A stretch of DNA of 61,708 nucleotides, the filler included, from Platydemus manokwari (taxonomy: Eukaryota): assembly GCA_037951405.1 (NCBI GenBank). It is 5 parts of 5 records of this genome, joined end to end, with 100 filler letters (N's around TTAATTAATTAA, not from the genome) between each part and the next. Parts side by side here need not be neighbours in the genome. Positions count along the whole stretch, not along the records: positions 10,643 to 22,000 come from JBBMOY010737759.1; 4 more parts are not named here. One strand, 5' to 3'. Below the pieces are notes generated by a model. The model was given only the letters and a program-made list of their open reading frames with translations, was not told where the DNA came from and did no database searches. Shown piece after piece: positions 10,543 through 53,229 of the stretch. Numbering within the stretch: the first letter of the stretch is position 1; each line of letters opens with the position of its first letter. The position numbers were made by a program, and so were the translations under genes.

Positions 10543-10642
10543 NNNNNNNNNNNNNNNNNNNNNNNNNNNNNNNNNNNNNNNNNNNNTTAATTAATTAANN
10601 NNNNNNNNNNNNNNNNNNNNNNNNNNNNNNNNNNNNNNNNNN
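10543..10642. other. Assembly spacer 44N-TTAATTAATTAA-44N
   Basis: Exactly 100 nt with a central six-frame stop linker; same structure at 22001-22100, 31300-31399 and 44617-44716. Confidence 0.97.
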
Positions 10643-10699: not shown

Positions 10700-13600
10700 T
10701 TTTTGCACCAACCTAATACATCTTATAAACAACAAACAATAACACTAATAATAGAAATACCTGTACTGGTATTCCTATTACGTGTGTACAAGACTTCATT
10801 TTTCTGTTATTGTGTGTTAGATATATTGGTGGGGCTGTTTATTGGAGGCCAGCCTCCTTCGTTATGTGAGATTTATATAACATATATGATTCTATAATAG
10901 AAGTAGAAACGAAAAGTGAAGCCAACTCATTTGAACTCTTATTATCTAACCCTACTCATCTCAAGACTTCATAATTCTGTGGATCCCACAGTCCTAAACA
11001 ATCTACGTTTAACACATGCACACTTACTGAAGTTCTGGATTGCCCAGCTATATGAACCACCAGATCTTCATACTTTCGGTAGTTTCGCTCTAATTTATTC
11101 CTAAAGTTTTCTTCCTTATCAAGTGGAACCTTAAGATCTACGAGGAATGTATGTTATTTCATGTTTTTACTACTCGAAGTTTGGATTATTAAGTCAGGAC
11201 GCAAAGAAGTCTTCACCTCAGCTGGCGACCAGTCGTCGTCTACATTATATCCTAAAGCAATAAGCCTTTAAGACAAAATTTCAAGTACTCCATTATGCTT
11301 AGAGGCCGCTACATAAGGATTACCAATGCAATGGTTGAGTACGTGGTCCACTGCAGTACCGCATCGACGGCAATTTAAATCTCCACCCTGGATTACACGG
11401 AAAGGCCGGAAATTTAGCGGTAAAAAGTTAATTCTAACCAAGACGAGGAAGTTTCAAACCTGTGGTGACAATACAATTGAGCTCAAAACTCCCATTGAAA
11501 CCTTAGATAGCGCAACAGTCTTAACTAACATACCCTGGCACTTTTTCTCAGTTTAAGAGATAAAACTTAAGAAACCAAACCTATAATGAAGAATAGAACA
11601 CAATTTATCCTTCTCTTTGTTGCCTATCATATATTGTAAATCCCTACAGATAACCTTAACAAATAAATTTCCTTCAAGCAAGACAAACTTACAATCTATT
11701 CCTCTCTTTCGCAGAGCCCGGACTCCCAACCTAACCTTCGACCACCAAGAGCCCGGTCCAGCATGTTCATCATTAATTGTGTTATTTAGCCAGTCTAGAG
11801 CCCTATGGAATTGGTCAACTTCAGAACGATTGAAGCGCTTGTTTACTACTGCGATCAATCTCTTTTTCATAAAAGAAGCAAAGACAGAGTCCGAGCTGTT
11901 CAACAACCGAAAACTTCCCACTATACTCTGAATATAATGGTCGATCTCTGCTGGCATAAGGCCAAGACCACCCAACTTTCTGCAGGTATACAAAAAGTCA
12001 TTATTTGCTGACGGATAAAAGCTAATTCCTATCATTTTTCTAACTAACTGTCTAATCTTTTCATCGAACCCGAATTCCATGGGCTTACCACCCATTTGCC
12101 TCTTGTGTAGAGAGAAAAAAGATAGAATACTGAGCTCTCTGTTTCTGAGGTGTAATGGTAGTCTAGAGTGTAGAAACACTCTAAAGGCGTTTAGCTATTG
12201 GCTCGGATGTATGTCCGAGTTACAAATCACTTCGAAGTCAGAGATGACATTATTTAAAATGTCATCAATATCTTTTCTCTTTGGGGAACCAAACAGAACT
12301 TTCATCCACTACTGGAATATCACTATCGTATATTCTGAAAACCGTTCTTTTCACTACAGAAATATCCACATTTACTTGGATTAAAGGCAAGATAAGCCTT
12401 ACTAGTCAGATACACAATTCTATCTAAACTATTAGCAATCCTTGTTACAACTACCAAATTGTCAGCACAAGCCAATATGGAAATTTCCATATTAGATAAT
12501 GTGAAAGGTCTCGGAAAATTATTGCAAGACTTAATAAGGAAATCTATCGATAAACAGAACAATGTCATCAATAAGGGGCAACCTTGTTTGACACCTTTAA
12601 CCAAATCAATAGACGGAGTGATTATATTCCCACGCCAGTATACAAATTTTTCAGAAGATTGATTGTGTTGGATGCACAACCCATCTTTTCCAGAGTCAAC
12701 CAAATTAACTCATAAGGCAAGCTAGGAAATGCATCCTTAGGAGCTAACCAAACGAAATGGCGATTCGCCCTTGACATTTTACAAGATTCGTAAATGGATT
12801 GAAGGCACGCATTGAGCTCAGCACAACCATCCACAGACAAGAGTGCTTTTTGATTCCCAAAGATTAAATATCCATTGGTAATCCAATGGAGCATGCGCTT
12901 GTTAATAATGTTACAAAACAATCTATAGGACGTGTCCATTAGCGCAATTGTTGCCAAGATGACACTAAGTGTGCTTGCAAATTATTCAGTGGTTTCAATA
13001 TGAGATAAGTCTTAAATTCTTTCCACTGACTCGGCACACGCCTTGAATTTAATACTATATCAAAGAATTTATGCAAAAACACAAATTTCGGATCAATCTC
13101 ACACCAATCCTTGAATAACAAGCCATCATTACCAAAAGGAGAGTTTTTCGAGGTTTTGAAAACAGAGGCAATTTATCCAACAGAAATTGGCTCATTTGTG
13201 AAAAGGTCTTCTGAATAAGGAAAGTCGATATTCAAATTAGAAAGAGGCAGTGGAGGTTGATGTGTAAAATGAGAGGTAATATCTTCAACAGATGGTAAAA
13301 TTGTTGGAGTAGTAGAAGATAACAACTTCTTTATTACTTTCTTTGGAATCACTATATACTCTTTTCTTAACTCAAAAATAGATTTAGAAGGTTCTACTTT
13401 TCCATCTGACATATATCTAATTTTGGATCGAAACCTATCAGGATATATACGAGATATTGCCTTTCTACCAAATTCAAGGACCTTAGTCAAATTCACATAA
13501 ATGTAATCCATCAACATCATCGCCTCAGAGAGGAGAGGGAAGACCAGACGACGATAAACTAGTTTTTCATGTCCGTGTTTCCTATTTAATAAGTATGTCA

Positions 13601-16600
13601 AATAAGAGTTTATCTGAGATCTAAAGTTTGAAACTGGCAATGAAAAACTACAATTTTCAGAACAGTCTTTTATATACCTGACAACAAAGATAATCAAATA
13701 AAGCGAGTTGTCTCGGCACATTGTCAATAAAAACTTTTGAGGAAGAGATAACAAGTCTTGGAGCGAGAAGATTCTCCAAGATCCAATTAAGTTTATCCAA
13801 TAGAAATACTTGTTCCTCTGACAACTCACTCCTTGCGGGATCCATTACGAAAGAATTTTGTTTACCAACATTGGCAATGAAGGCAAGCCAATGATCGTTA
13901 TTCCAATGTATCAGCCAAAGAACTGCCGAAACGGGAAAGAATCATAGAATAAATCCAACTTACAGCGGGCAAAAGCTATAGCAGGAGGAGGCGGAATGAA
14001 AACTATACCTTTCCTACCAGACAATCGAAGGCTGATATAACCTTCAATCTCTGGCCCGCCTAGTCATTCTGAAGGACGACCGTCTTCCCCTAATTTTAAT
14101 GATATCAATATTTCGTCATTTAAAGTCAAAGATTCACAAGTTTTTCCTGAATAGTGAATTATGTGAATTGTAATGTGACTTGAAATTAACAATATTTCCT
14201 ACAAAATCACAATGACAAGTTATTTCAAGATTATTAATATCTATCAGATTATGAATTGTAGCAAAGTGTTTACGTACCCCTGTAATATTAGCATTACTGG
14301 GCATGACAAAAGATTTCTTTATGTTTTGATACAAACAGCACAAAGCCTTTGAGTTAGAGGAAGCCGTAAAGATATTCATGACTGGCATCTGAGAAATAGT
14401 AAATAGATCTGTTATTTCAATATCAGAAACTGGAATAGAGTTATTAGTTCCACCAAAATTTTTAAAAACATTCATATGTAATTTTAAGTCTTGGAAATCC
14501 ACAACTGAAGGGTAGTAAGATGAAAGAGTCCAAAATAATTTGTACACCATAGAGTTAAAGTTACAACTGCTGAAGAGATAAATGTCATCATTATCACCTA
14601 AGTCTGAGAACGAAATGTGGCTTTTTCAATGGTCTGTTATGCACTCGTCAATTATATTATCGAGTAAGCAACCAAGGAGCCTATCACCAAATTGATTAGT
14701 TGAATTTGGTATCATTTTTTAAATACCAACATGAGGTACAATAGCAGAGCTATGATTATCATTTGTGAGAACAAAGTCAATCATACTATAAAACTTTGTG
14801 TCCAACGAAACATCAACTACCTCACTTATAATCTTATCTATCGAATAATCATTCTCAAAATTATAAGAAATCAACATCTTCAAACTGGGCTTGCAGCAAT
14901 CACTGCAACTGCACAAATAAATATATCAAGATTTATTTCAACTTGCTCAAATTACTCTCATAGCAAGTTTCGATCTATCTTACACATTGTCTACGAAAAA
15001 CTATTCCTTCAAGAGAGACGTTCCTCAACAACAGATCACGATTAAATCTTCGGAATGTACTTGCACTTATAGACACACCGGAGATCTCCCTACAAGCCTT
15101 AGATAACCAATCGAATCAATACGAACAACCGCACGCTCTCGCCTCAAGTAAATTGTAGGTTTATCTTTCCTCGAAAGTCAAACCTCAGTGTAAGAAATCT
15201 GCACAGAAATCGAAGCAAAATTTGCTAATGTGATTGGATTCGGAACTTGTAACCCTTTTCTTTAACTTCGCCCTATTAAACAGTGTGGAAAATTTTTCAG
15301 CATATTTTATTAAACAATCTAAACACTTGTGATTCAAATATCCTATCATTAATCTCATTTCAACTCTCTTTCCCTTATTTCCTATAATCAATCTTGTACG
15401 TTAATCACTAACAAACTGATTATTCGGATGTAACTTGGAGTAAGTTCTCTCCACACTGAACTTACAAATTCTACAGTAGCTCAACCACCTATCAGGGAAA
15501 ACAAGCAAATCACAAAGACTAACTCGATCAGCAATAAAACTATTATTTTTTAAAATTTGCTTAGAGTTAATAAAGGATCGACCAAGCACAGAGCCAGTAA
15601 CAATAGTTTTAATGGGTCCCTCCACTACTCCATTGGAGCTTGAAGAATTCTCCTGAGTCCCTTGTCCGGACTCTGGAGTTGGTCGACCTATAAGGTGACT
15701 TGCCACAAGACCTTCCTTCTCCATGGTACGAATCGGATTACCATCGTCACTAGCTCTTTCATCATCATTAGTTTTAATAACTTTGTGCTTAATATGCTTC
15801 TTTTTCCTTGCATATTTAACTTTGGTGATCGGTTCTATATTTTTCATATGATCACTAAAGTCAATAGGCGCAATTGGTTTGGCGCGACGACCGATTTGAC
15901 CACTAATTACACCAACCTTATTGCTAGCATTAATATTAATTGAATGTATGCGGCCGCCGTCTTTAACAATACTGTTCTTATTAATCACATAGTTTAAGTC
16001 CCCTTCATTTACTATAGGTGAGGTACATTTAAACGTAGTTATAGAGGTATATTTATAAATGTCAGTCTGTATACATTTATTTATTAACCCTTCACCTTCT
16101 TCTGGATCTCTTTCTCGCCTGTGGGTAAAATTTATAACAATTTATAACATAAGCTCTCTATCACTACCCTAAATAAATACGTAAATGAGGTATCAAAAAC
16201 TGGAGTACCAGTTGGGGGATTAATGCCAACACTGGTCTCGACATTATAATGACCAGACCGAGGGATAAGTGCCTGGTTGATCCTTATATAATGACAATTA
16301 ATACCCATATCCTGTTTCAAAACATTACAGCAGTACGCTCTTTCAGTGTCCAAATCCACTTGTTCACTTTCGTTATGACAAGCATACGCATATCTACCAC
16401 TAAACTTCAAGGTAGGGGGACTATCACCAATCCATTTATTCTTCCCGTGAACCTAGCTGAAATAGAATTATTAACAAAAAAGTTATCATTGTGGTGAGAT
16501 TTACCACTCGAAATCTTGGTATTATTAAAATCGTTATTAATAGTCACATTATATACATTGAAATCTTTCCATAGAATTGGACACATGGAACCCGTCAAGG

Positions 16601-17000
16601 TTTCAGGTTCTCCAGTGGTTTTTCTCTTATCATTATCAGGTAAGTTTAAAGTGGAAAGTTAGTTATGCAAACTTTCCACTTTTCCCTGTGCAAAATTATG
16701 AGTACCATGTTCCGTAAATTTAACCGGAAGGTTAAACTTACTCGGCATAGTGAGACTATTATTGGCGCTACTTTGAGTGCCTTTACTAATGAAATGAATC
16801 TGTTCGGGGACTTTAGCCAATATTTTAGAGTTATAATTACTTAATTCATTATTAATTCTAATTTTAAAAATTTTGTCCAAAATTTCGGGAATCTTTTTCT
16901 TAAATCGATCACGCGGGACGTTATCAATTTTATTAGTCTCCCTAATTACAGTTCTTAAACTTTTCTGTTAATTTCTTTGGGTTAATTCACTCCTTGTTCA
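10700..17000 (-). mobile_element. RLE (R2-superfamily, NeSL-type layout) non-LTR retrotransposon, one long disrupted ORF
   Basis: 5' to 3' on minus: Cys/His zinc-finger-like segments (YCRICKF; KHFATIH...CHCDF...SHYNSH), Ulp1-like segment (13657-14080), RT motifs (KNSP.GNDG, WLAPKDAFPSL, KGVKQGCPL, LACADNL, FNPSKC, GGLGL), CCHC CRRCGTAVDHVLNHC (~11325-11375), endonuclease RPDL...LVDLKVP...KYEDL...GLWDPQN (~10975-11205). Ends approximate. Confidence 0.88.
13657..14080 (-). pseudogene. Ulp1/C48-like cysteine protease domain within the RLE retroelement
   Basis: E*LGGPEIEGYI (like WLNDEVINFY, with W changed to stop), LIHWNNDHWLAFIA (catalytic HW), MDP (like D-S/P), NVPRQ (like PxQ), in the expected order upstream of RT; the DCG catalytic Cys motif is not cleanly preserved. 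Confidence 0.6.
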
Positions 17001-17582
17001 GAATTTTGCAAAAGTCGATTAAATAAGGAACTAATGACCCCTAATTTATTTTATTTGATATTTTTTATTACTTAACTATGTGAATTTATTATATGGTGTT
17101 GTTTCATCATTACCCAAAAATAATTAGCACCAATATCTGTTATAAATAATGCTTCTTAAAATATTTATTCATGCTGACGGGTTGTTCATATCGTTTCAAT
17201 TTATGCTTTGCAAATTCGGTTTAATTAGATTCTTCGACATCTTTTTGAAATTTATATTCTCCTAGATAATTATAATGGTCTATATTATCATTAATAATTA
17301 TTTTATTAGCTTTGACATAACTTTTTACCAAGTACTGATTAAATTTAACCCCCAAATTTACTGTTCTCATATTACATACATTGATTGATCTGTAAATAAT
17401 CGTAAGTTTATATTTGCTACTTTTAACACAGATTTTTAAATTAAAGACGATGAGAAAACATAATGAGCAAGCTTTAAATCTCTTTGTTTAACATGATCAT
17501 TTCGGAAAATTTCCATTTTATCAGCTAATGTATGAAATTGTGTTATCCCATAATGTTTTGCAATGGAATTTGTTTTAAACAT

Positions 17583-18303: not shown

Positions 18304-19688
18304 TTATTTTGTTGGTTTTTGAGGTCTTTTTGATTCATCAACTGATAAACTCGACAATGGATTACCGTTTCTATGATAATTTTTAAATTTTGTTTTAAAT
18401 CTCTCTACAATAAATGATCAAATATATTGATTTTAAATTTAAAAGAAAACTTACCGATACACTCACTCACTGGACCACCGAGTCCACCGAATTCAGTTGG
18501 TAAGATTTTTTCCATTCCAGGATTTTTTTCAATGACTTTTGAGAAATCATTTTTTGCTCGAATTACCTGAATGTTTAGATTGTCGATAAAATATATGATA
18601 AGGAAATATGATGAAGATAAATTATATTATAGTGAAAGTAATAACAAGTATTTATAAATATTATAGTGTGAAATATAAAATAATAAAATTAAAAATGATT
18701 ATCAATGATAGATAATAAATATAATAATAATTTATAAAAATAAATATAATAACAGATTCGAATGAGAACATAAGTAATGAAAAACTATTTAATGAAAAAT
18801 GAAGAATTATATACTCGGCTTTTTATTTTTTCATTCATAAAGAAATGCAAAATATTCACAAATATATCGAATAGTAACGGCCCATTTGAAAATATGATTC
18901 CCTTCACTCTTATTGGATAAGAATTCTGCAGATCATTATTTTATAAATATCGTTTTAATTAATAAATAACTTGTATCATTCCTAAGATGTTCTTTAAATA
19001 TCTCGGTTGACAAGCCGCTAAAAGAGTTTTCCGCGAAACATTCTCTCCATTAAACACCATTGTTATCCCATGAATCTGAGATTCCTCTTCGGCCATTATC
19101 ATATCACCAATCATGAAGAAAATGTTAACAGCTTGTTGGAAATTAACTTTATCAGGATTCCAATATCCTTTATCCCAAGATATTATTTTATAATTTATAA
19201 TTAATCTCATACTAGCTACCATTAATACTATAATTTCACCATTATCGTCTTTTCCCAGTGGTAGAAATGTACTACAAATATAATGAATTTAATAATGTTT
19301 AATCCATCATTAATTTTGATACCCTGAATCCAAATATTCATCAATAATTGACTCATCAATTTGTTTGAATAAATGCGGACATCCTCGAATCGAACCACGA
19401 CCTGTACAAAAGTTATCCAATCGTTTTTCGGCTTTTCTGTGATCGAATTTAGCAACACGTAAAAATCTCAACAAGAATTCAGCATCTAATTAAGTAATCT
19501 TCAAGAAATCACGATTATTAACCAGTGATGAAACCTGTTGGACAATTGAGGTGAGGCATCGATTTAACCCATCTTCTGAAACTCTCAATATGAGCATTGA
19601 CTTGTGATGGATTCTCATTCAAATTATCAATGGCGAATTGTTTCGATTTGTTACTGATTTTATCATATACATAAAGACGTAAAGACAT
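18304..19688 (-). CDS. CRAL-TRIO (SEC14-like) lipid-binding protein, alpha-tocopherol transfer protein/clavesin-like; 7 exons: 19688-19535, 19485-19323, 19271-19213, 19167-18971, 18925-18815, 18566-18455, 18404-18304
   Basis: All introns GT-AG and phase-compatible; motifs DAEFLLRFLRVAKF, EESQIHG, YPIRVKGI, ILPTEFGG, C-terminal SVDESKRP; ATG to TAA with no internal stop. Confidence 0.92.
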
Positions 19689-22000: not shown

Positions 22001-22100
22001 NNNNNNNNNNNNNNNNNNNNNNNNNNNNNNNNNNNNNNNNNNNNTTAATTAATTAANNNNNNNNNNNNNNNNNNNNNNNNNNNNNNNNNNNNNNNNNNNN
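22001..22100. other. Assembly spacer 44N-TTAATTAATTAA-44N
   Basis: Seen directly. Confidence 0.97.
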
Positions 22101-22743
22101 ATTGTTTAATCCTTAATAATAATAATAATTAATATTATAATAAAAGATCTTACATAATAACAATCTTTTAAATTTCATATAAAATACTTTCGTCCCTTTT
22201 TCAAAAAAATAAAATTTACGAAAATTATCTTATTAATGTTATTAAAAATGAAAAGATGAAAACAAAATCGACAATGTTTTGCATATTAATTTGATTGATC
22301 TAATTGTTTTTTTCTCTGACATTAACAGAAACTTTTTTTCAGATAATTGTGCAGTTATCAATCATCAGGTTCCACAAATTTATGAATTGTCTACTTATTT
22401 CTTATCTCTTCAATTATTATTTAAATTATCATTCAACAATATAATTCTTTATAAAAATTTAATTATTTTTATCCCATTATCTCGGAAACGTTATCGATTT
22501 CATATTAAAATCGAACTCCTCGACCATATAATTAATAAAATCGGGCTAAATCAAATGATTTTAACTTCACAAGTATTATTCTAACAACAAGTATTAAACA
22601 CATTTAGATAATTATAGAAATCATGTGCCGAATTTGAAATTCATGACAGCGATTTTGTTTATATGTTATAAATAGATTACTAAATTCATTATAAATCCAT
22701 GAACTATTCGAAATATTATTTGGTGTAGACAAACAAAAATAAC

Positions 22744-24281
22744 CTTGAACTGATCATTTAGTACAATGAGTCGTCTGATGACTTCTTTCGGGGAATTTTG
22801 TGAAGTATAATTCGATAGAAACGGTATCTGACAACTGTGCAGCTCGTAGAATATCATACCAAACGAATAAATATCTCCTTTCTGATAGGTGTACACATCG
22901 AAATTCTTAGGCATAGGATGGAATGTATTTTTGATAAACGTTTCCTTACATGGATCATCATTCAGCAGGTCGGAAAAATACTCTTCGTTTTTATTGTCCA
23001 TTGACTTCAATCTTACGGACACTAGTTTCTGCTTAAAATCGTTTAGAAATGGATTGTTATGGCATTTCAATTGAACAATATTTCGAAGAATCTCCGGCGC
23101 AGTCCAAAATAAGGACATGAAATAAATATACTCTGGCATATCGGGAGGAGGTAGCATGTAGGTTAAAAATTCTGTCATACCATAATCGGTGAGTTTTACC
23201 GTCCAGCGACTATCAACTAAACAATTTGACGATTTGAGATGGCCATGGAAGCATATATTGGGATTATCATGGAGAAAGGTCAAACCACGAATCACATCAA
23301 ATGCAAAAGAACTCAAAAATACAGGATAATCCTTTGTGAGGTTGGTGCTATAGAGAACATCTTGTAGACTGCCTCGATCACAGAATTCCCAAACGACCCA
23401 AGTATCATTATGCTCAATTATCGCTCCCATGAATTTATTTAAATTCATATCACTCATTTCCCGTAGAATTTTTAATTCTTTTTTAACGTTTCTTGTTATC
23501 GATAAAGCCGAACTGAAAAATACTCTTTTTATCAAAACTTCTTGATTTCTGTATATACCAACCAATACATTCGAGTTCGACCAATCTAATGAGGACACCA
23601 TGTCTATGTTGCAACAGCTAATGGTTATCAGAAATTTATTTTTATCTTCATCGACAGGTAAATAAACCGTGCCATTTTCAGCTTCATTGATCGGTGGCCT
23701 TGTTATGAAAGAAAATTTTTCCAATAATTCTAGACTGGTTAAATCTATTTCCTTGTTCTTGTCGATTTTCCACAAAAGTCTTTCCAATTCTCTCTCATAT
23801 TTGTTACTTCGAATAATAAAAGCCGAAACCAATACGACAACAACGAAAACAATACACAAGCCAATAGTGATCAGTATTATTTTCTCATTTGTTTTACAAA
23901 GTTCACCTTTGAATCCACATTCCGGTACATCGCGAGGTACATTACGGACCCATTTAATGTTTTTATTTGCTATGAATTTAAATTCCAAAACATTGTTCGG
24001 ATTTCGTTTGAATAATCCAATCACTTCTTTGCGCCAAAACCCATTCGGATCGATAATCATTTGTTTGACAGTATAATTGCCCGATGCACCGCCTTGATCA
24101 TCGAGACGATTCATGTAACCATAAACACTGGTGTATTGTTTGTTGATAAGTAATTGTTTCAATAACGTTCCGTTTCTTGGTGATCCAATCGTTTGATTAC
24201 GAAGAACCGTTCCCACTGCACTTGCATAAAGCCAAACGGCATCATATAGATAACTGGATTCGACGGGATCGTAGGTTCTGG
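22744..24281 (-). CDS. Receptor (membrane) guanylyl cyclase, large internal exon: end of ANF-receptor ectodomain, TM helix, kinase-homology domain
   Basis: YLYDAVWLYA, PRDVPECGFKGELC, TM IILITIGLCIVFVVVVLVSAFII, YERELERLLWKI, EFCDRGSLQDVL, HGHLKSSNCLVDSRWTVKLTDYG, WTAPE, KGDIYSFG; acceptor AG at 24283-24282, donor GT at 22743. Cyclase catalytic exons not found. Confidence 0.9.
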
Positions 24282-24739
24282 CTAGAGAATGATGAAAAAG
24301 AGGAATAAATTAATTTCCTGTAAAATACAAGTAGCAATATCAAATATCACCAATAACAAAATGATTAATATTTTATTAAAAATAAAAAATAAATCTCAAG
24401 CATTCATTGTACATTAATTTATCAAATTAAAGATGAAATACTGAGTAAAAATCTATAAGAATGTAATTATATTTGTGTTGCTTAATAATAAATACAACCT
24501 ATTAAGTTAATATTAATATTTTATCTTTATGATTAATAATAATAATAATAATTTTAAAGACAGAAATATAAAATTCAAGCAAAAACTATTTAAAATAATC
24601 CAATTCTTCTACTTGGGCCATTTCCAATAGATGGAAATTATCAAAACTGAGCTGAGAGACTGAAATCAATCAGGAAATTTTATTGACTTTCTGTTTTGTA
24701 AATAATACCATTAATTGATCTCATACACTTCTTTTCTTT

Positions 24740-31299: not shown

Positions 31300-31427
31300 N
31301 NNNNNNNNNNNNNNNNNNNNNNNNNNNNNNNNNNNNNNNNNNNTTAATTAATTAANNNNNNNNNNNNNNNNNNNNNNNNNNNNNNNNNNNNNNNNNNNNT
31401 TTAATAATAATAACAATAATAATAATG

Positions 31428-31474: not shown

Positions 31475-34400
31475 TTTGGAATCTACTTCTGAACAACTGA
31501 ATAATTACTGACTCCAAAACTGATGGTTATAAACCTTATTTCTAATCCGCGTACTAATCAGAACTACTTACAAAATAACATAAGTACAGATAAACTCGTT
31601 TTACAACTAATACTCGTACTACTCAAAAACAGCCAGAACCTGGATTCTTAATGGCATTTGGCCACCTTTACATAAATATGTATACTCGAGATCTGTGTGT
31701 AATTTTCGTGTCATGTTTGTATCACATTTTTACTTTTCCGCGTTCCCATTGGGTTCATCAGTTATTGTATGAGTGGGATTGGTCAAACCATATGTGTGCG
31801 TTGTTGTATGACTATGTCCCTTTTTCCAATTGTCGTTTACCTTACAACTCCGCTATGATTGGTCTGTTACTATGCTTGCATGATTGTGTAGATGTGCAAA
31901 TGTTTAAAATGCTAAAACAGGGGTTCCTGTGTGCAAATCCGTTTTTCTTGTGCAGAAATTTAATCTCAATCAACAACAGTAATAATAATATTAATAACTT
32001 ATAAACACGTATATGAGAAGGTTTTATAGTAAATTGAAATTTGATATTCTGATGTGAATCAGGAAACTCATTTTAACAGAAAACCACAATTTTTACGATT
32101 AACCCTTATTAAAGATAGCGAATTCTAAAGACATGTTGAGAAGTAAAAGCAAAAACAATTATTAAATGTATATCTCTTAATTAGAGTAAACCATTCTCCA
32201 AATTTCCGGATTCAACTAAGTGGCTGATAGATTTTTAGTTTTCTATGTTTGATTATTGATTGAAAAGTGTCAAGTTTGTTTAATGGTTAAATAAACCTTA
32301 ATTAGCACAACAATTGACGAGGTTTTGATGTTAAGTTTATCTTATAAACTACACAATGTCACTTATATAGCAAGCTTATATAGAATTTCTTGAAAGTGTA
32401 AATCATTATCGGAACACTAAACATATATCTCACTTTCTCTTTTTAGTTAATTTTTAATTGTCAATCTAATTTTTTATGATTTCTCTTATTATATCTCTAT
32501 ATTACCACGACAACGGCTTCAATTACCACTAGAATGAATTGATTTAATTTAAATGATTCATCCTTAACCATTAATAAATTAATTGATCAGAATTTTTGCA
32601 TTTGTTGCATATTGATTTTAATAATTATTTCAATTGATAAAAAAATTTACACAAATCGCCGAACGAGAAACAACATCATAAACAAGCTGAAGAACTGATC
32701 GAAAACAGTCAAAAAAATTCAAACTTTTGGTTCACAGCTAATTATTAGAAAATTATTATGCCAACTTGTATTGATATCAATTTTTCAAAAATTGTTTCAA
32801 CATTCTGCGATTCAATATATGTTTGTATATAATGAATTGATCAGTCAATCACATTCTAAATCTATAATTTCAACTTGGCATTTTGTCAAATCTTTCCTGA
32901 TATTCATTAAATATTTTCAGCCAAGCTATTATTTATAACATAACTGTACCATTTATGATTTGCTAACCAAATCAAATTTTCATTCTAATTAATAATATTT
33001 AGGCTAAACACATTTTATATAATGTGAAATATATTTCTAATTATGAAACATAAAATTTGTGGAATCATAAAATAATTTCAAAAATAATTTGTTGCAAAAT
33101 CTATTAGTGAAATCGATAATTACAAAAGGTGATAGAAGTAATGATAACTGAGTATTTCTCCTTCGGAATTCAAACTGAACAAAAGCAATATTTGTATAAG
33201 ACAAGTTCTTATCAAGCTCTATCAAAAATTATCAAAATAAACTTTATAATCATCTGGTTATTTGAATTAATGTACTTACGTCAATTCATTACGGTTCGCC
33301 TGGGCTGGTTTTAATGTTATTATTGTGGAGATTTACCATTATAATTAAATGTTTGAGTAATAGGCTCAATGATTAAATCCAATCCCATTTGCCTAAATCT
33401 ATAAGTTATATTTAGAAAATATTTTGTATTAATTATTTTCATTACAGTTTTTTCTAAACGAATTCAATAAGAGATTTTAATTGGAAAATAATGATTGTGA
33501 TTTTGTTGAGATTCATTTTATAATTTCGTAAAAGTGCAGTGTTAAAGATTGATTTGAGACATTTGATAGTTTTAATCGATATCTTTAATTAACTTTTAAC
33601 TGTTTTCTATAAAAGTGTACTCATTTTTCAGATTTCTTGATTAATAAATAGAAACGACTTTTAATTAATGGTTTGATTGGAATATTGATTTAAGATGTTG
33701 CTCACTTGTTTGGATTATTTTCTGTTCATTTATGAAGATTAGAAAATAAATATTAATTAAATAAAAATATATATTTTTATTAAAACTATTATTAAGATTA
33801 AAAAATTTAAAATGGAAATTTGTTTAAATATTATTATAAAATAAATTTTTATGAATTGGCAGCAGCTTAACAAGCTTGAATTTACAGAAAACAAAATGAG
33901 TTAGTTTTAGCTAAAAACGTTGGCTTTGTTTTATGATATGGAAGATAGGTTAGGATATCTCCAACTAGTGGGAATAATGCCATCTATTATTTCGTATCTC
34001 AATCTAGCGGATCGGTTTACTCTTTTTTGACTAGCTTCATTAAATAAACCAAACAAACAAATAAACTGTAAAATTTAATTTATTAAGTGCTTGGTTACAA
34101 TATTTGAATGTTATTTGTTATCCATCATGACTTATTGTCACAATATATTTACACCATCAAACTTTGTTATTATAAACTATTAATTATTATTGATAATTTT
34201 AGAGCTATTTTTAAAATATTGTTATTATTAGTTGTGCGATGATTCACATTGTAAATATTTTCATCATAATAAACATTATAAAAGTTCAAAAATTGCCAAA
34301 ATTTTCAAAAAAAATATTATTTCAATTATTTGTAGCTTGGTTCTTTATTATATACTTAGATATATGGTTAAATAAGTAGTACAGAACACACAGAAATTAA

Positions 34401-39500: not shown

Positions 39501-41238
39501 TGTATATCGAGGCAAAAAGTAAAATATTTAACTCTGTAGATTGCAAAATTAACAGTTGTCATCTCTACAGTACATGCCATTTATTGATTTGATAATGGAA
39601 TTTCTTGAATATTATTGATACTGTTGAATGAGTCAGGTATGTAAAAACTTTAAATGAATTTTAGCTGTGATATTTTTAATAAAGCATTGAATTTAGTTTA
39701 CGGTCTTTATTATTATTCTCAATTCTATATATAAATGATCATCTGTGAAAATTTTCTCATATTCGAGCAACGCAATGATCCAGATCATTAAAACAATTCA
39801 TCAACATTAAATTTAAATAGCGATGAACTTGTTACGATATAATATTTATCATAATATAATCATCAGCTGATATTTACACACATGTAATTATCTCTATGTT
39901 TCCTTGCTCTTAGATCTTCAAGCACTTATTTTAATATCTGATAACTAGGATCTGTTTTGTCCGAATGTTACTATATACAATTTTTCACATTTCTTACATT
40001 TCTTTTGTTTGCAATGCTGCCAAATGAATAAATTTCCTGTGTTTTTTGGTCTTTTGTATTAATAATGATTTGAAAAATGTGCTTAATAAGTTTTTGTGGA
40101 AGCAAAATTTACCGTTAAAATTAAATGAAATCTAAACAAAATAAATAATAATTATATTTATAAAATAACTACTAATGAAATTCATAATTATTAAACTTGC
40201 GGGAAGTTGACATGAGGTGATCGTTCAGAAATTGTCTTTCAAGACGTTGGGTTGAGTAGTCATAATCATTGGTTATTAATTTTAATCAGAAAAATCAATT
40301 GCAATATCATTCTAAAAATTCCAAAATAAATCTAAATAGCGAAAATCAATATCATTACAATTTATGTTTGTTTATTATATTCTGGAGTTAATTTAGAAGA
40401 CCAAATTTTAACATTGTTTTACTGGAATCAGAAGAAGCATCTAATTATAGTTTAAGTTGTTAAATTTTAACAGCTGCTTCAAGAAGACTAAATTTAACTC
40501 CAATATTGAGCAAATAATACAAGATCGAGATATTGACACATGTCGAAAAATTTTTGTTTAATATTTTATCTCTTCTTGAAAATATTAGTGTCGTTTATCG
40601 ATTCATTTAAAATTTGTTCAAAGAATAAATTTAATTTACTTTTTTAAATAAGTTCGGATAAAGTGAAGTTTGATTTTAGATTTTTATTTCCCAATAAATC
40701 GATTAAGGTCAAATATAAGCATAATTAATTATGGAAGTTAATTTTCAATTATTAGAACTGCTTTCGATTGATTTTAGAATGAATTAAGGATTGTTACAAT
40801 GAAAAATCTATCTGGAAATAAAAAAAAATTAATAATCTTCTAACATGTGAATTTAGTCAAATTTATTATTAATTGATAATCTTATGAATAATTTTCACAT
40901 TTATTTCAGACAAAATATTTTTAAATGATTAATAATTTAAAGTATCACATGACATACAAATTCTTAATATTTTAAATCTTCTGTTTTAATAATAGTGACA
41001 ACACGACCGATCTAAGACTATTACGTCAATATTAACAATTCTGACACCCACTCATTCATTTAATGACTCATTTTGGCTACAACCAAGTTAATTTAGTAAC
41101 AGCTGCTATCATTGGTTTAAGGATATAATGAAGGACCAATAGAAATGAAGCCAAATAATTAATCAAATATTTCTCATCTGAGAAGTTCGATCAATCTTAT
41201 TTCTGGACAGCGTATGATATTCAATATTATGTTTCTTT

Positions 41239-41792
41239 ATGAATTTTAATTCCTCAAATGTCTACGTAGTTGGAGCAGTAGACAATCCTCAGTCCAAGAT
41301 TATCCGAGTAGTCCATATCTCTGATACTATGGGATGTGAAGACAAACTTTTCTCTCAGATTCCATTTGGACATATCCTCATACATTCCGGTGACTTTGGA
41401 AAATCTACTTTTCTTACTGCATTATGGCGTTCGAGAGCTTTTCTCAGCCAAATAGATAATATGAATAAGTTTTTCAACCATTTACCTCATCCTCACAAAA
41501 TTTATGTAGCCGGATGTCATGATAATCAGTTTTCTTCAATGTCTAAGGATGAAATTCAATCATTACTACCACCTGTTACTTATCTGCAAGATTCGTGGTG
41601 TCAATTATATTCATTAACAATATATGGAACCCCGTGGGTTAAAAGGAGGCTCAAAATTTCAAATGCATTTAGTAAAGACACCACGAGTCTTTCTGAGTCT
41701 TGGGAGAAAATTCCCAATCATACAGACATACTCATTTCAAATCAGAAACCATGGGAGTCAACATTTTACAAACACATCTCTAGTAGAATTAA
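41239..41792 (+). CDS. Metallophosphoesterase, MPPED1/2 (239FB/UPF0046)-like, large exon; 3' exon not located
   Basis: IRVVHISDT, IPFGHILIHSGDF, LPHPHKIYVAGCHD, TYLQDS, IYGTPW, WEKIPNHTDILIS; GTAAG donor after ...SRIK. Confidence 0.85.
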
Positions 41793-44616
41793 GTAAGATA
41801 TTGTGATATAAATAAATATAGACACTGCTTGGATTGGTTTAATTATTCATCGATTTCTTGCTAGTCTATCATTAGAATAGAAGCAATTTTACCAGTTGCA
41901 TTTGAATGAAGTTGAAATAATTTCAATTTTAACATAAACTAATTTGATTTACAACTAAAATAAGCTTCTTTTGAACTCTATATTTCAAATCTTTCCTTTT
42001 AACATCATCAATTACTTCCGCAAATTAACACCAATATTATTGGTATTTCTACTGTAAGATGTTTAAATATTATAAAAAATGAAAGTTATGAAGATATTAA
42101 AAATACTTCATAGATTTCATTAAAGGAATATTTTTTTCTGTCGTCATCTTTCTGCTGATCAAAGTGAAATTTGAAAATCATCTGGTTAATATTGTTATTA
42201 TTGTTCCGGCAATGCTTGAAATACAAATCTGTATTCCATCTTGGAATTCTATATTTGTTTAGTGAATCTATGCTGACATTATGACTAAAGCTGCTTATCT
42301 GGCATTAAAATTCCCAGAGTAAATTTGTTAGAAAATGTGCAATAAAACAGATTATGTCCGATATTTCGTGTTATTCATTTTGATATGTTTCGATTGACCA
42401 ATATCTGATTTCCAATTGATTGATTGATATTTTATACACCAAGTATAAATTGAACATTTTATTAGGCCCTATAAATTGCCGTGTGATATTTATCATATAT
42501 TAGAGATTTTTAAAAATATTCAATGCATATTTTCGCTCTTCATTTGTCATCTTCAATTGATAATATTTTGTACATTAATGCATCACAAGATGAATTTATT
42601 CTCAAGGCAATTTTCATATTTCATTTCATCTTCCGTTAAATGAATTAGATTCAGTATGAAATTGATATCAGTATTTCGATTCTCATTTATTGTTTTCAAT
42701 TTGTATAAATTCCAGCTTAATAAACTAGTGTCAATTTGGTTTAATTGGTCGATATTTATCCCGGTATATATTTTCATTGTCTTTGAAGTGCTTATTGAAC
42801 TGTAGATATTTACCGAATATAATTTCGAATATTTGTATTTATTACGAAAGCGTATCGAATGAAATCTCCCATTAACAATATAAAAACTAATGTATGGTTA
42901 ATAAAACCGGTTAATATTTGCAATTAATTTTATAATTATTCTCTATTGGTATTCAGTTAAATTTATTTAATTAAATTAAAAGTTCCTCAAAAAGTTATTT
43001 TTTTGATTAGCACCTTTATATATTTCTCCTAAGTCAAATTTCATCATACAACTATATATTGTTGTTGAATCGTTTATCAATTTCGTTTTTTTCTATTTTT
43101 ATAATTTGGTGTCATGGTTTTAGATTTACTAAAATCATTCTTAATATAATAGAATTAGAATTAGCTAATAGAATTAGATAGGCTATATGTGTGTGTGTAT
43201 TCTTGATGAATATTTATAATTTTTAGTTGATATGATACTTATCATATATAATACCATAATAAATGTTCAAATTGTTTATATTAATTTATACTATTCTAAC
43301 GATTTCATTTCGAAAAATTTAATTTTTATCGTTAATGCAGAATTATATTACATTAAATTTTTATTAATTATTTTTAGTTTACAGATTTCATTGATAATAA
43401 TTCTAATACACAATTTCTAATATTAATAAGTAGCGTTAGCTAAACATTATTAATATTTATGTAATTTAAGCTGGGAAACTTAGGACTTTATATAATTACA
43501 TTTGAATTCATCATTGTTCTATGATGTTAAGGTTATACGTCAACGATTTAAACTATTTATAGTAACAATAATGACAAAGTAGATATTTAACATCTATTTT
43601 TTAGGTAACATTCTAAATATAATGTTTATTCATGATACAATCACATTTTAAAAATTTACATCATTAAATTATGTTACTTTCAAATCGGATTTTTGAAAAG
43701 GTATTTGAAAGATTAATAAAAATATTTATATTAATATTCCATTGTCTAAGTCATAAAATTTTATTATTTAATCGTTTGTTTAATTTTAAATCAAAATGAA
43801 GCGAGAATTCTTTATCAAAAATGAATAACAAAACGATTGATTTGCAGATCGATCATTTGCGAACTTGCGTCGTGTGATTGTGATGTGGCCTACGTGCTGT
43901 ACACACTTTGTTTAGCGCTAATTATACCAAATGCCACGTTTATCTAAATTGAAAATGTGATTCTTACATCATTCTAACTAATTTTAGATAGATCTTACGA
44001 ACTAATAAACTGCATTCAATTATAACTGTTTTATCTTTCAGTTTCATTGTATTAATTAAAATATTCACAATTAATGATTTCATAAATAAATCCTCAGATG
44101 AGTAATTTGAAATTTAAATTGATTTTGATAATATTTTATTAATATTCTGAGCTTTTGTTTACAAATATCCAATAAACAAACTATGATATGATGACAGATA
44201 AATTTACCGAAATTTATTAACATAATACTAAGTTAAAATCGGCCAAAAAATTATCAAAGGAAAATATTAAAACATTTTCCTATCAAAGCAAAGTAAATAT
44301 TAAGCAATAATCTATGGTAATTGTTTATAAGTAGTATTTAATTATTTGAGTTGAATATTTTCTTTAAAAATAAATTTTTGAGTAGAATGAAAACATTTCA
44401 CCAGAAACCATTTTAAATCTATGACTTATTATTGTTGTTATTTTTGTTAACAAGAACATTTGAAGCCGACTAAATAAAAACATACTATTTTGGTCACAAA
44501 ATAATTATCTGGGTCAAATAACACAGCATAAATATGTAAATTATGAAATATTTGAAAACGAATGCAAAACTAACCAATTCCTTTAAATTAAGTAAATATA
44601 TTTGTGGTTTTAAGAT

Positions 44617-44716
44617 NNNNNNNNNNNNNNNNNNNNNNNNNNNNNNNNNNNNNNNNNNNNTTAATTAATTAANNNNNNNNNNNNNNNNNNNNNNNNNNNN
44701 NNNNNNNNNNNNNNNN
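44617..44716. other. Assembly spacer 44N-TTAATTAATTAA-44N
   Basis: Seen directly. Confidence 0.97.
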
Positions 44717-45026: not shown

Positions 45027-48000
45027 CTTGATGAGGAATATCCTGGAAAAATAAAGGAAAATAAGGTATAGAACCTTAATTACAATCCTCGAATTGATAA
45101 TATTTTAATTATAATAATTAATTTAACTTAATTAGTATCTCTTATACAATAAAGGAGCTCTTATATTTTGATTATATTCATCTAATCAAATGTTATTTCA
45201 TCTTTTCACTTTTCAGATTTTGGAAACCAAGCAAATGATAGATATGATGAAACAAGTATATAACTATTTATTAATGCCTGTATATTGAATATTTTGTGTT
45301 TCTTATAGTTAATGTCAACAATTTCTTATAAATTGCTTATTCCTCTATTGGATATTTTTGATTAAAATATCTCGTTTTTCAATAAAAAATTCTTAATTAA
45401 TTTTATTCTTTAAAAATAGGTGCTTTTGGATTTTTATTTAAGTTATAAATTTTCACACACACAAATAGTTTATTGCTGAGTGTTTTTAAAAATGGTACAA
45501 ATTTACCATTAATAAAACTTCCATATACACCAACACAGGCTATTCTAGTAGACAATTAGTGGTCATCAAATCAACGGTTTCTTATTAAATTTCAACAGTC
45601 GGTCAATGAATGAATGCCAACAAAGAACGACACATTCAAATTGGCTAAAGATGGTAAAGAATAAATAGAAATAATAGAAAGAAATTTAGTTAGATAAAAT
45701 GTAATGAGACAGACATTGAAACATGGTGGAATTATGGAACTTTCATTGCAGTTATGTTTGAATTTGCATGGAGTCTCAATAGACAGCCATTAATGATGAA
45801 AGTAGATGTAAAATTGTCTCAATTTAAAACCACATTTACTACCTGATAACATTGTTTCACCAATTGAGTTTAAATTGAGTTTCAACAACGAGTCATAAAA
45901 TCTAGCATCACACAAGAGTTCACATCACAAACCAACATCAAGAAAAAGGACTTGCAGAAAGAATTATTGAGACCGTTTGAAATATGGTAATGACTGCAAT
46001 GAAATCCAAAAATATTTTATGCGGTTTGGATAATGAATACTAGATACCAAAACTCGGTGAAACTTTAGCCATTCGATATTCTGTTTCGAAGCTTATTGGT
46101 CTACGCAGATTGAAGATGAAAAAAACATCACGATGAGACACTGCTGAAATTGTTTGTTGTTAATTTTAAAAAAATTCGATACAGATGCAAATGAGAAACA
46201 AAATATTTACGCTATGAGAGGTATTGTTGAAGAAGGAACCGCACAGGATATAAAAGAATGGCTTGCCAGAATACTCAAAATTTTGAGTCCGCATCATGTT
46301 ATACTTAATTTTTGAGAGTATTTAAAATATAGAAGAATTGAAAGACTTCTCAGAAAATTATCAGAATGGGAGATTAGATGACATTTAAGAGTTCAGTAAT
46401 TGGAAGTAAAATACATTTTAATTAATAAAGATTATGGCCTTATTTTGTGTTCTTACTAAGAATAATTTAACTTCTTTGAAATAAATATACCTTAAGTTTT
46501 AATTTTTATTCAATTACATTGCAAAATTGGTGAAAGAAAATCAATTGAATTACGTGATTGATTTCAGAATATCAACTCAGTACAAACAACGCCAAATTTA
46601 TTTCTAAATATATACAAAGACCACGATGACATACATAGTCAATTCTGTCTTTGACAGAATAATTCATTTGTATTATTTTTTATAAAAAAATTCACACACC
46701 ACTGTTTGAAACTCATTTAATTTGCAAACATACTCAAATGCATTCTGAAAATATTAACTTTGCTTTGGTAAATTAATAAGCGAAAATTATTATTATTTAT
46801 TGTAAAAAAAATATCAAATTAATTTTCAGCAAATTGCTAATGTTGATGAACAAATTGCTGAAGTAGAAAAGGAAATTTCAAAAAACCAGAGTTCAGCAAA
46901 TCTGTCCAAAGAAATCACTGATATTTTGGAGAAAATCAATAAGGCCACCGCCGAAAGACGAGCATTAACAGAAAAATTGCAAACGGAAAGGGTTCTTCGT
47001 AAAACATATTACAATCAAATTGAAGATATGAAAGGTGCAATTAGGGTTTACTGTAGAGTAAGACCATTAATCAAGTTTGAAAAAGAACGCAAAGATGAAA
47101 TTTGCGTAGAATTTCCTGATATATACACAATAGTTATCAAACAACCCGATAAAAAGAATATAGCAGAACGTGCAAAAGAATATTTGTTTGATAGAGTTTT
47201 TCCTTTAAATTCTACACAGACTGATATCTTCAAAGATATTGACAAGTTAATTGAAACCGTTTTCACTGGATTCAATGTTTGTATATTCGCTTATGGACAA
47301 ACTGGAAGTGGTAAAACGTTCACATTAATTGGAGATATGGATTCTAAAGTTAATATGGGTGTTGTTCCGCGAGCATTCATCAGATTCTACGAGATGATAG
47401 AAGCTAACAAGTATTTATTTTCGATTAATAGCATAATTATTTTATTAAATGTTGTCAAAAATTTTAAATTGTCGCATTATTTTAGACTCACCATGAAGAC
47501 CGAAACAAACTTCTATATGATAGAATTGTATAATGATAAATTGCTTGATTTGATGAAGTCAGATGCAGATTATGTGGTAAATATTAATTTAATATTATAT
47601 ATTTTATATGTTTGACTGTATATGTGTCATTGAATTTTTAATCGTTTATTTTAATAAGAAGAACGAAATTTTAGTGTATTAATCAACAGTAGTTTTTCAA
47701 TTTAAATCATGACGCTTTTATTTAATTCAACGGAGGAATTTTTTGAAATATATTTCGATTTGATTTTATAAAATAGATAATTGTGGCGAACTGCCTCCAT
47801 CTTTTGGAAAGTTTTTGACGCCAATTTAACACATTGACGGACTGTAGGAACAAATGAAGTTCGAAATTTAACACACTATGTGCGTACTTAAGCTGCAAGC
47901 CGTGTAATAGATGGAAAACAAATGTCAACCGAAAGAATTGTTTCCAAAACATGACACTAGTCTACTATTTGTACGCCGCTAAATGCAGATTTGTGCCGCA

Positions 48001-51796: not shown

Positions 51797-52930
51797 CTTT
51801 ACAGCATTCCTTCTTTAAGGTTACTTTTGCAAAGTATGTTATCAAATACTCATAATATCTGATTTAATAGCTTGTTCTTTGACTGATTTAATCAATTATC
51901 GATCTGTGTCTAATTTTACTATTTTAATTACTAATTAATTGGGCTTCATGTAAGCTTATAAGTTAACTGAAATCATTGATGCTATACAATCAACAGTTAG
52001 GGTATCCTGCAATCTAATTGAAAAATAAGATATCGCGCATATTGGGTCATCAAGTGATTACGATTAACGAAAGTATTTAGAGCTTTTGATAGAAGATTTA
52101 TTAAGGTTATTTTAATCTTCAATTTATAAATAATTTGGTGAAAAGCAATAACTTCCAGAACCAAAGAATTAAATTCCCCAATCTCAGATACTAAATCTTG
52201 TGAGATCATGTCATTTTGCTGCGGAGGGACAAAGGACTAATCATCAAATCAAATATTAAGAAATGTCTTCATTCTTGAAAGAAATTTTAATTAAATTTCA
52301 CTTGTGTGGGAATATGGATAATTTGGTCAGAACTTGTCAATAAATCAGGATAAATTCCAACAATTTATACCTAATTAAAAAGCATATTTTCAAGATAACA
52401 AAATCAACATTAAATCTAGCAAATTCAGAAAGATAATAAAAATACTAGCCATCTAATCTTGAGAGATAAAGTAGTTTGTTTAATGGATATAGTAAGAGAT
52501 AAAGAAATTAAGAATTGAACGCCTAATGGAAAAAAATTATTATAAAGAACAGCAATTTTCGAAATTTGTAAAATATATTAAAGAAATCGAAAAGGTAAAA
52601 CACTAGAAAGAAAAACCAGGAAACCATGGGAAAATGTGAAATGATAAAGGAGAAGTTTACCGTATTACTAACAAGTTACATTGGTTTTTATTTCGCTGAA
52701 ATTTTTACAATCCCAACTAACGTTGTAATAATAATTTTTTCATTATTCTCTTTATTATTTTTATTATGCATTCTTTTAATTATTTTAATTAATTAATTAT
52801 TTTTATTATAATCTGGAATTCAATAATAATAATAATAATAATCAATATTATAGCGGTATCTTTTGATTTTTAAAATAATTATTTTTAAAATTTTAAATCT
52901 TTTTAATTCCAATTTTTATATAAATTTCAG

Positions 52931-53229
52931 CTGCAATTCTCGATCAAATCGTTACGGTTGTCATTGAAAAATTCCCAAAAGATCGAACTCGACATTTGTT
53001 TCGCAAACTGAAAATTCCGGAATCTGTCATCACGGAACTTGAATCGACATATCGTGGAAAATTCAATCAGAAATTGTTGCTATCGAAAGGTATTGAAGCG
53101 TGGAGGCAATATCTCGAAGACAAGGCGACAACGGATACTTTAATCAGATGCTTCTTTTTAATAAACGAAAAAAGTCTTAATGTTGAATTGATTCAGATAA
53201 AAACACTGGCCAATCGAATAAAATTGTAA
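52931..53229 (+). CDS. Terminal exon encoding a Death domain; upstream exons unidentified
   Basis: TTTCAG acceptor, then RHLFRKLKIPESVITELESTY...IEAWRQYLEDKATTDTLIRCF (Death-domain LxRxL..I..., W...AT..L pattern), TAA, and AATAAA at ~53316. Confidence 0.72.

Follow-up and report, generated by a model that had tools for sequence, protein, structure and literature searches.

A decayed retrotransposon of Platydemus manokwari (GenBank assembly GCA_037951405.1) and an intact distant relative share a stop codon in frame, TGA with CTA-G directly after it, at the place where Ulp1-like protease domains open with a conserved Trp-Leu. From comparison of these sequences we conclude that active elements of this kind probably have an ORF1-UGA-ORF2 organization, in which programmed readthrough of UGA-CUAG, in the style of gag-pol, yields the enzymes of the second open reading frame (ORF2). 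The element occupies positions 10720..17030 on the minus strand (~6.3 kb, both ends approximate) of the window, i.e., the whole analyzed stretch of 61,708 nucleotides, which joins five parts of five records. The copy is a dead, dispersed non-LTR (non-long terminal repeat) retrotransposon of the type with a restriction-like endonuclease (RLE), and it carries a Ulp1/C48 protease. A broader proposal, to which we give somewhat better than even chances, is that a whole unnamed clade of RLE elements is laid out as gag-stop-pro-pol, in the manner of retroviruses. In such a clade a Ulp1 protease would have been captured and its conserved Trp codon turned into a leaky UGA-CUAG, and one recoding event would turn on the protease, reverse transcriptase (RT), and nuclease together, fixing their ratio to a large zinc-finger ORF1 protein.

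Translation of the minus strand gives the domain order zinc fingers, Ulp1/C48, RT, CCHC, and PD-DxK, and in tblastn the region 14000-10860 is collinear with proteins of intact relatives in 4–6 frame pieces (E-values down to 1e-119). The GC content is 0.32–0.40 inside the element versus 0.22–0.24 in the flanks. The RT (12326..13373, minus strand, by Pfam and tblastn) is interrupted by stops and frameshifts, and single pieces of it match Pfam RVT_1 only weakly (E 0.0035 and 0.066). Its GVKQGCP motif is found at 12595, and its core reads ACADN at 12472; among the differences listed, other copies have variants at 12458, 12460, and 12468 that we decode as Y-A-D-D. A CCHC zinc knuckle (motif CRRCG..HVLNHC, 11330..11372, minus strand) precedes the PD-(D/E)xK endonuclease (10838..11210, minus strand), in which RPDL..VDLK..KY aligns with intact relatives (RPDL at 11201, VDLK at 11141); searched alone, the endonuclease piece had no match in Pfam and no sequence match in PDB. 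The ORF2 terminator TAA (10840-10838) is followed by ~120 nt of visible 3′ untranslated region (UTR; 10720..10837, minus strand), the real 3′ end being beyond view. Eight stops and about five frameshifts in ORF2 mark the copy as dead. An RT followed by CCHC and a PD-(D/E)xK endonuclease, with no apurinic/apyrimidinic endonuclease (APE), places the element in the RLE (R2) group. The sequence-only reading had proposed a Ulp1-bearing RLE element with NeSL-like anatomy, and every part that it named was found in its place, on the minus strand.

The candidate readthrough site, TGA then CTA-G, lies at 14060..14066 on the minus strand (the stop codon itself at 14066-14064) and was located by alignment with the closest intact relative, locus L001 (L-numbers denote loci and P-numbers predicted proteins of relatives). 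In L001, at least 253 open codons containing two zinc fingers are followed by one TGA (762-764) and then by 1,152 open codons in the same frame, so that this TGA is the sole stop across ~1,400 codons. All seven bases of TGA-CTA-G (762-768 in L001) are identical between the two sequences at the same aligned codon, the aligned ORF2 pieces being only 27–44% identical. Of the Leu codons, 26/136 in L001 and 13/133 in the window copy are CTA, and none of the four other Trp-Leu pairs of L001 uses it. UGA-CUA(G) with an ORF in frame beyond it is present in 2/2 DNA examples, and 12/12 protein clusters give indirect evidence for it, P0159 being an exception. Alphaviruses and several plant viruses have UGA-CUA as their readthrough consensus, frequently together with a stem 8–12 nt downstream (PMC3159437), and UGA_CUAG is a mammalian readthrough motif (PMC9841425). 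The word TGACTAG occurs three times in the window versus 3.1 expected and so means nothing by itself; what matters is its position and frame.

Since the stop at 14066-14064 is common to the window copy and an intact relative, the family appears not to be a single-ORF one. The R2 group has been called single-ORF (PMC3636483), whereas here an in-frame stop separates the fingers from the protease in both L001 and the window copy. The sequence-only reading had assumed one collinear ORF with a very long N-terminus and had taken the TGA at the first Trp of the protease for decay; the same stop in intact L001 speaks against this, and the upstream 2.9 kb are better read as an ORF1 that ends at the in-frame UGA, which looks like a trait of the family. 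Nor is it credible, except at the very margin, that the hosts generally read UGA as Trp or selenocysteine. The codon does align with Trp; however, ORF2 of L001 has 17 TGG codons and no other TGA, the window copy keeps TGG at 11 of 13 conserved Trp positions, and the site is not that of the catalytic Cys. General recoding of UGA is already largely refuted by these codon counts.

With the RT piece as the query, 153 matches were obtained at E≤0.001. All 14 predicted N-termini that were aligned begin after the TGA column; with P0018 set aside as lying outside the clade and P0002/P0157 counted once, they represent 12 close clusters. In 12/12 of these the protein starts 5–98 codons after the column, and in six within 10 codons (P0005, whose offset of 8 is an alignment artefact, is excluded from the six). 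Identity among the close clusters is mostly 29–43%, with one trio at 70–81%. In P0186, which is identical to L001 ORF2, the start was placed on the GTG that comes first after the stop, at a distance of five codons; this shows how gene callers treat an ORF1-stop-ORF2 layout. P0010, from a short contig, has its first residue within the RT and tells nothing about the start. Contigs of close relatives are 5.5–7.1 kb long and their ORF2 3.0–3.5 kb, which leaves room for a similar 5′ part. For comparison, seven Ulp1 elements that fall outside the clade were selected through their C48 matches; Trp occupies the column in 7/7 of them and the frame runs on upstream.

These starts bear on a different account, in which the element has one long ORF and the shared TGA arose by independent nonsense mutation of TGG in dead copies. 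We hold this to be unlikely. A single G>A would suffice, and G>A/C>T dominate the differences listed among copies; moreover, two of the 13 other conserved Trp codons of the window copy are stops, so that its TGA, taken alone, could be decay, and the frame of P0159 is continuous across the column. The same account has to explain why L001 has no other break in its ~1,400 codons and why its protein is recorded from two sources with the same start; why 12/12 clusters start after the column, compared with 0/7 outside the clade; and why CTA is common to both DNA examples. The listed differences among copies (40 of 1,913) include none at 14064, which is uninformative, as only one of the seven other ORF2 stops is listed.

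The Ulp1/C48 (CE-clan) protease domain spans 13600..14063 on the minus strand. Its Pfam C48 match (13657-13941; E 2.5e-4, 21.4 bits, cut-off 20.7) falls within 13657-14080, where the sequence-only reading had expected it. The His (HW at 13893-13888), Asp (13842), and Gln (13710) are kept in the window copy, and the catalytic Cys falls in a frameshift at ~13692; among the clusters, the Cys motif is intact in 11/12, with Ser in P0006. With Trp at the UGA, the L001 domain is modeled as a whole Ulp1 fold (pLDDT 90; Z 18.2 and root-mean-square deviation 2.6 Å to yeast Ulp1 over 170 aligned residues). The earlier label "deSUMOylase-type" is based on the fold, which does not single out SUMO: the comparison ties Ulp1/SENP5/SENP3 (Z 18.2–17.3) and also finds NEDP1 (15.8) and deubiquitinases, i.e., SUMO, NEDD8, and ubiquitin proteases alike.

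If the stop were a family trait and ORF2 were made on its own, as in SART1 or LINE-1 (long interspersed nuclear element 1), translation would reinitiate or use a near-cognate codon (GTG/ATT/TTG) a few codons after the stop; we assign this a small probability. Non-LTR elements that reinitiate are known, and the process may require a structure downstream (PMC5972666); L001 has the GTG five codons after its stop. In the window copy this codon is GAG, and no ATG occurs until after the catalytic His. Both L001 (codon 69) and the window copy have their first in-frame ATG beyond this His, yet protein-level conservation extends over the sequence between stop and His. With a later start, the first helix of the protease would be clipped and the zinc fingers would no longer be joined to the RT. 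Also against a separate start, the stop is placed exactly on the conserved Trp, in a readthrough context.

Downstream of the stop, folding predicts a 17-bp RNA hairpin (14016..14055, minus strand) that begins 8 nt after the UGA. In the window copy it has a z-score of −3.88, none of 200 dinucleotide shuffles is as stable, and among 178 windows along the element it ranks third by z-score and second by energy. Weak pairing across the stop itself appears in some folds, and this is one of the two arguments for RNA-level correction, in which either A-to-I editing would change the UGA to UGI, decoded as Trp, or splicing would bypass it; the other is that editing would restore precisely the conserved Trp. 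We consider such correction very improbable: the strong stem begins 8 nt past the stop rather than across it, a 5′ G disfavors editing by ADAR (adenosine deaminase acting on RNA), and CUAG is what readthrough predicts.

Several points weigh against readthrough. There are only two DNA examples, one of them decayed, and the window copy has the stops at other conserved Trp codons mentioned above. P0159 is continuous from the fingers into the protease and has Lys at the column, two changes away from TGA; the proteins in its cluster, P0007 and P0160, begin with the first downstream Met. As the residue that follows is Asp/Gly, the G of CUAG is in part imposed by the protein sequence, and gene-caller starts reveal an upstream break, not which codon it is. 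Finally, the long imperfect stem predicted for L001 is not significant (z-scores +0.19 to −1.99), and its junction windows are outside the top 8 of 85.

Upstream of the stop, ORF1 (14067..16967, minus strand, ~965 codons) is decayed and was delimited by frame openness; it has no known domain except two terminal zinc fingers. Reading 16970-14067 on the minus strand requires 14 breaks, the same number as ORF2, compared with 45.7 ± 3.9 in shuffles, 27–31 on the plus strand, and 30–47 in the flanks. The 2.9 kb 5′ of the protease most likely belong to the element, because they are as open as the RT frame and are repeated to ~16,560. This agrees with the earlier suggestion of ~2.8 kb of further coding-like sequence at this place, which now appears as 2.9 kb of open frame in the same repeat. 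Membership of 16565-17000, covered only about once, is less sure; with the cover there about single, the last 450 bp are assigned by frame openness and GC content. Pfam gave no meaningful match over ORF1 (weak RAG1 matches, E 0.006 and 0.018, were below the cut-off and were rejected), and a search of 13901-17200 against the 80 loci and collected proteins gave none at E<0.6; thus, the region beyond the fingers has no detectable homologue in Pfam, these loci, and these proteins.

The two fingers, found by alignment at ~14158..14341 on the minus strand, are degenerate and C2H2-like, and from their sequence they are likely to bind DNA. Residues C162, H184, H189, C204, and H219 are invariant in L001 ORF1, P0159, and the window copy, and P0159 has a weak Pfam C2H2 match; for P0159 residues 1–330, the search by structure returned C48 clusters and the search by features nothing. 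Among the differences listed, other copies have one extra base each at 14140 and 14155, which would bring the fingers into frame with the TGA, as in L001. Separate ORF1 proteins that end at the stop were also sought: of 7,993 scored, two matched, one being L001's own ORF2 and the other unrelated. Near the 5′ end of the element, two strong hairpins (16640-16755, minus strand; z-score −3.82 for 181 nt, the top two of 178 windows) have no Rfam match; judging by the predicted folding, a 5′ regulatory or self-cleaving RNA is possible.

In the readthrough scheme, zinc-finger ORF1 and protease-RT-endonuclease ORF2 form one frame split by UGA-CUAG. Most ribosomes on the full-length RNA would stop, giving an ORF1 protein of ~965 amino acids that ends in the two zinc fingers, and a minority would insert an amino acid at the UGA. 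The residues usually inserted at UGA are Trp, Arg, and Cys; Trp would restore the Ulp1 motif. The resulting minor polyprotein of ~2,040 amino acids would nick DNA and reverse-transcribe at the nick, i.e., perform target-primed reverse transcription, which is established for R2-type elements, and readthrough would set a high ratio of ORF1 protein to enzymes. The protease likely would trim the polyprotein or strip SUMO- or ubiquitin-like tags. As it sits right behind the proposed leaky stop, polyprotein processing suggests itself as the role of Ulp1, and the layout gives a handle on what this domain does in such elements.

Phylogenetic analysis of RT and thumb (FastTree) places the window copy in a clade of 13 of 71 rows with support 99; with 30 selected rows (IQ-TREE), it is in a clade of 10 (support 100/99), nearest to P0165 (50%). 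The sister clade includes elements with tandem Ulp1-like domains: P0015, P0017, P0050, and P0166 are RLE elements of ~1,520 amino acids with one intact Ulp1 domain, and in three of them two repeats of Ulp1 type, both degenerate, can be recognized by eye ahead of the RT. The nematode Ulp1 element P0078 (Acrobeloides nanus), together with P0124 and P0131, forms its own clade (98/96), which we interpret as NeSL-like. Arachnid and sponge elements also fall outside the clade of the window copy. FastTree joins this clade with the nematode and arachnid/sponge elements (97), and the deep nodes of IQ-TREE are weak (72/79). The window copy has the Ulp1-like protease upstream of the RT that is a feature of NeSL proper, yet it does not cluster with the nematode elements; it likely belongs to the NeSL clade in the broad sense, as judged from trees that contain no labelled NeSL, Utopia, R5, or LIN references. 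No clade protein with a meaningful name was among the proteins found, in line with the suggestion of an undescribed family, which has no named member in the searches made. Other searches added no close relatives: none of 753 candidates found with the thumb piece was homologous, none of 19 pattern matches in viral contigs was a relative, and genome contigs gave distant elements only.

In one sequencing run, 2,296 contigs align to 10760-17200 (228 at 99% identity or more, 386 at 95–99%, 744 at 90–95%, and 938 under 90%). Toward the 5′ end, the summed depth declines steadily: it is ~2,000 at the 3′ end, ~420 at 14,000–14,400, 55–340 over 14,400–16,560, and ~20–30 beyond. It does not equal copy number, and the run may be the window's own source. 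This slope is the pattern of 5′ truncation, i.e., of multiple copies shortened from the 5′ end as in the RLE group, and it has no step at 14,100. Hence 14100-16560 behaves as part of the same repeat, contrary to the alternative that 14100-17000 is a separate element. Among the differences listed, up to 58 contigs differ at 3′ sites and two or three at 16338-16453. No second copy within the window was found by self-BLAST.

That the copies are many and diverged, and that this one neighbors a CRAL-TRIO gene, suggests that target specificity is weak or absent. The flanks contain no Rfam family, tRNA, or rRNA, although a host-specific spliced leader (SL) could escape Rfam; this matches the earlier remark that no SL, U2, or rDNA target is visible, with none seen by Rfam, tRNA, and U2-motif scans. 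No U2 was found in the window or in the 18 of 80 loci scanned, and two target motifs match at chance level, far away. Neither a terminal direct repeat nor a duplication of the target was conspicuous, and a mir-54 match of Rfam in the 3′ UTR (E 0.12) was below threshold. The 3′ junction is disrupted near an assembly gap. A TA and a short stretch between the 3′ UTR and the gap (10599-10642) resemble what we take to be a mariner terminal inverted repeat, which may have cut off the 3′ end of the element.

The nearest described elements are NeSL of nematodes and Utopia-1_TSP, which likewise have zinc fingers, a Ulp1-like protease that opens with the same W-L/T-x-x-x-x-I motif, RT, CCHC, and RLE (PMC4640811). 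They keep the Trp and are described as one protein, whereas the window element has the UGA and an ORF1 of ~965 codons; they target SL exons or U2 (PMC4640811), whereas it has no visible target, and it is in a clade separate from the nematode Ulp1 element P0078. In the available part of that paper, Kojima and Jurka list the Ulp1 domain only for nematode NeSL and Utopia-1_TSP, all with Trp-type motifs (PMC4640811). The R5/LIN branch of the NeSL clade, from planarians, consists of RLE elements that lie close to NeSL and insert at different targets, among them 28S and tRNA (PMC4640811). In this part of the paper they are not listed with a Ulp1 domain, which the window element has.

RLE elements have been described as single-ORF, and the studied two-ORF non-LTR elements use reinitiation. 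R5, which has two ORFs, is another exception to the single ORF of the R2 group, and the same arrangement may already be in print for it. Reinitiation is the known mechanism for ORF2 of LINEs (PMC5972666; PMC5009743). In SART1 and LINE-1, which also are non-LTR elements, the full-length RNA yields less of the ORF2 product than of the ORF1 product; they differ in being APE-type, in using termination-reinitiation, and in producing separate proteins (PMC5972666). Similar in layout are gammaretrovirus gag-pol and alphavirus nsP3/nsP4, with a structural or binding ORF, a leaky stop, and enzymes in frame, and the alphavirus context, UGA-CUA with a stem 8–12 nt downstream, is like the window site (PMC3159437). 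Readthrough has been measured in the viral systems, whereas in this non-LTR element it is deduced. In murine leukemia virus, gag-UAG-pro-pol likewise sets a high ratio of the first product to the enzymes, with UAG and a pseudoknot where the window element has UGA.

We found no literature joining non-LTR or RLE elements with stop readthrough; the R5 literature, Repbase, and most supplements of PMC4640811 were not covered, and a prior mention is possible. For Ulp1 with non-LTR elements, only PMC4640811 was found. If true, readthrough would add to the mechanisms by which LINE enzymes are expressed, and it would have arisen separately from that of retroviruses. It also would mean that gene callers clip these proteins, and that surveys of RLE elements, which are now mined as gene-insertion tools, miss ORF1 and its fingers or discard the elements as broken.

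Upstream frames were observed at other loci as well. An open stretch of at least 500 codons ahead of the RT motif is present in 72 loci. In 15 of these, L001 among them, a single stop is preceded by 120 or more open in-frame codons; the others are L007, L008, L012, L014, L039, L056, L071, L080, L091, L095, L099, L106, L114, and L116. The six of those loci that were checked are APE-RT elements, with the APE domain starting about 10–30 codons past the stop. The stop contexts include TAG-CAA-TCA (L039, a motif of tobacco mosaic virus type), TAG-CAA-GCA (L056), TGA-CGG (L071), and several TAG-G; judged by sequence, readthrough may occur in APE-type LINEs too. The RT element P0024 has an N-terminal GATA zinc finger (E 4.8e-10), and the APE-type RT element P0150 has a match to the UCH protease (E 6.8e-5). 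RLE retrotransposons within gut-origin bacterial metagenome-assembled genomes (L082-L089) form their own clade and are probably eukaryotic contamination.

The remainder of the window contains pieces of host genes: CRAL-TRIO (18405-19288, minus strand), receptor guanylyl cyclase-like with an ANF receptor and kinase homology (22669-24309, minus strand), a kinesin motor (46806-47612, plus strand), and a weak death domain (52924-53226, plus strand). A metallophosphoesterase-like piece (41218-41793, plus strand) was recognized by eye. The gaps at 10543-10642, 22001-22100, 31300-31399, and 44617-44716 each consist of N44, a 12-base spacer with stops in all frames, and N44; as they are contig joins, order and distance across them are unsure. 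An LTR-type RNase H fragment (Pfam RT_RNaseH, E 4.9e-6 at 449-805) lies in a region (372-1977) that contains inverted duplicates (794-931/1610-1749 and 372-552/1787-1977). A pair of 340-bp inverted repeats (31637-31975 and 56165-56498, 66% identity) perhaps represents remnants of another transposon.

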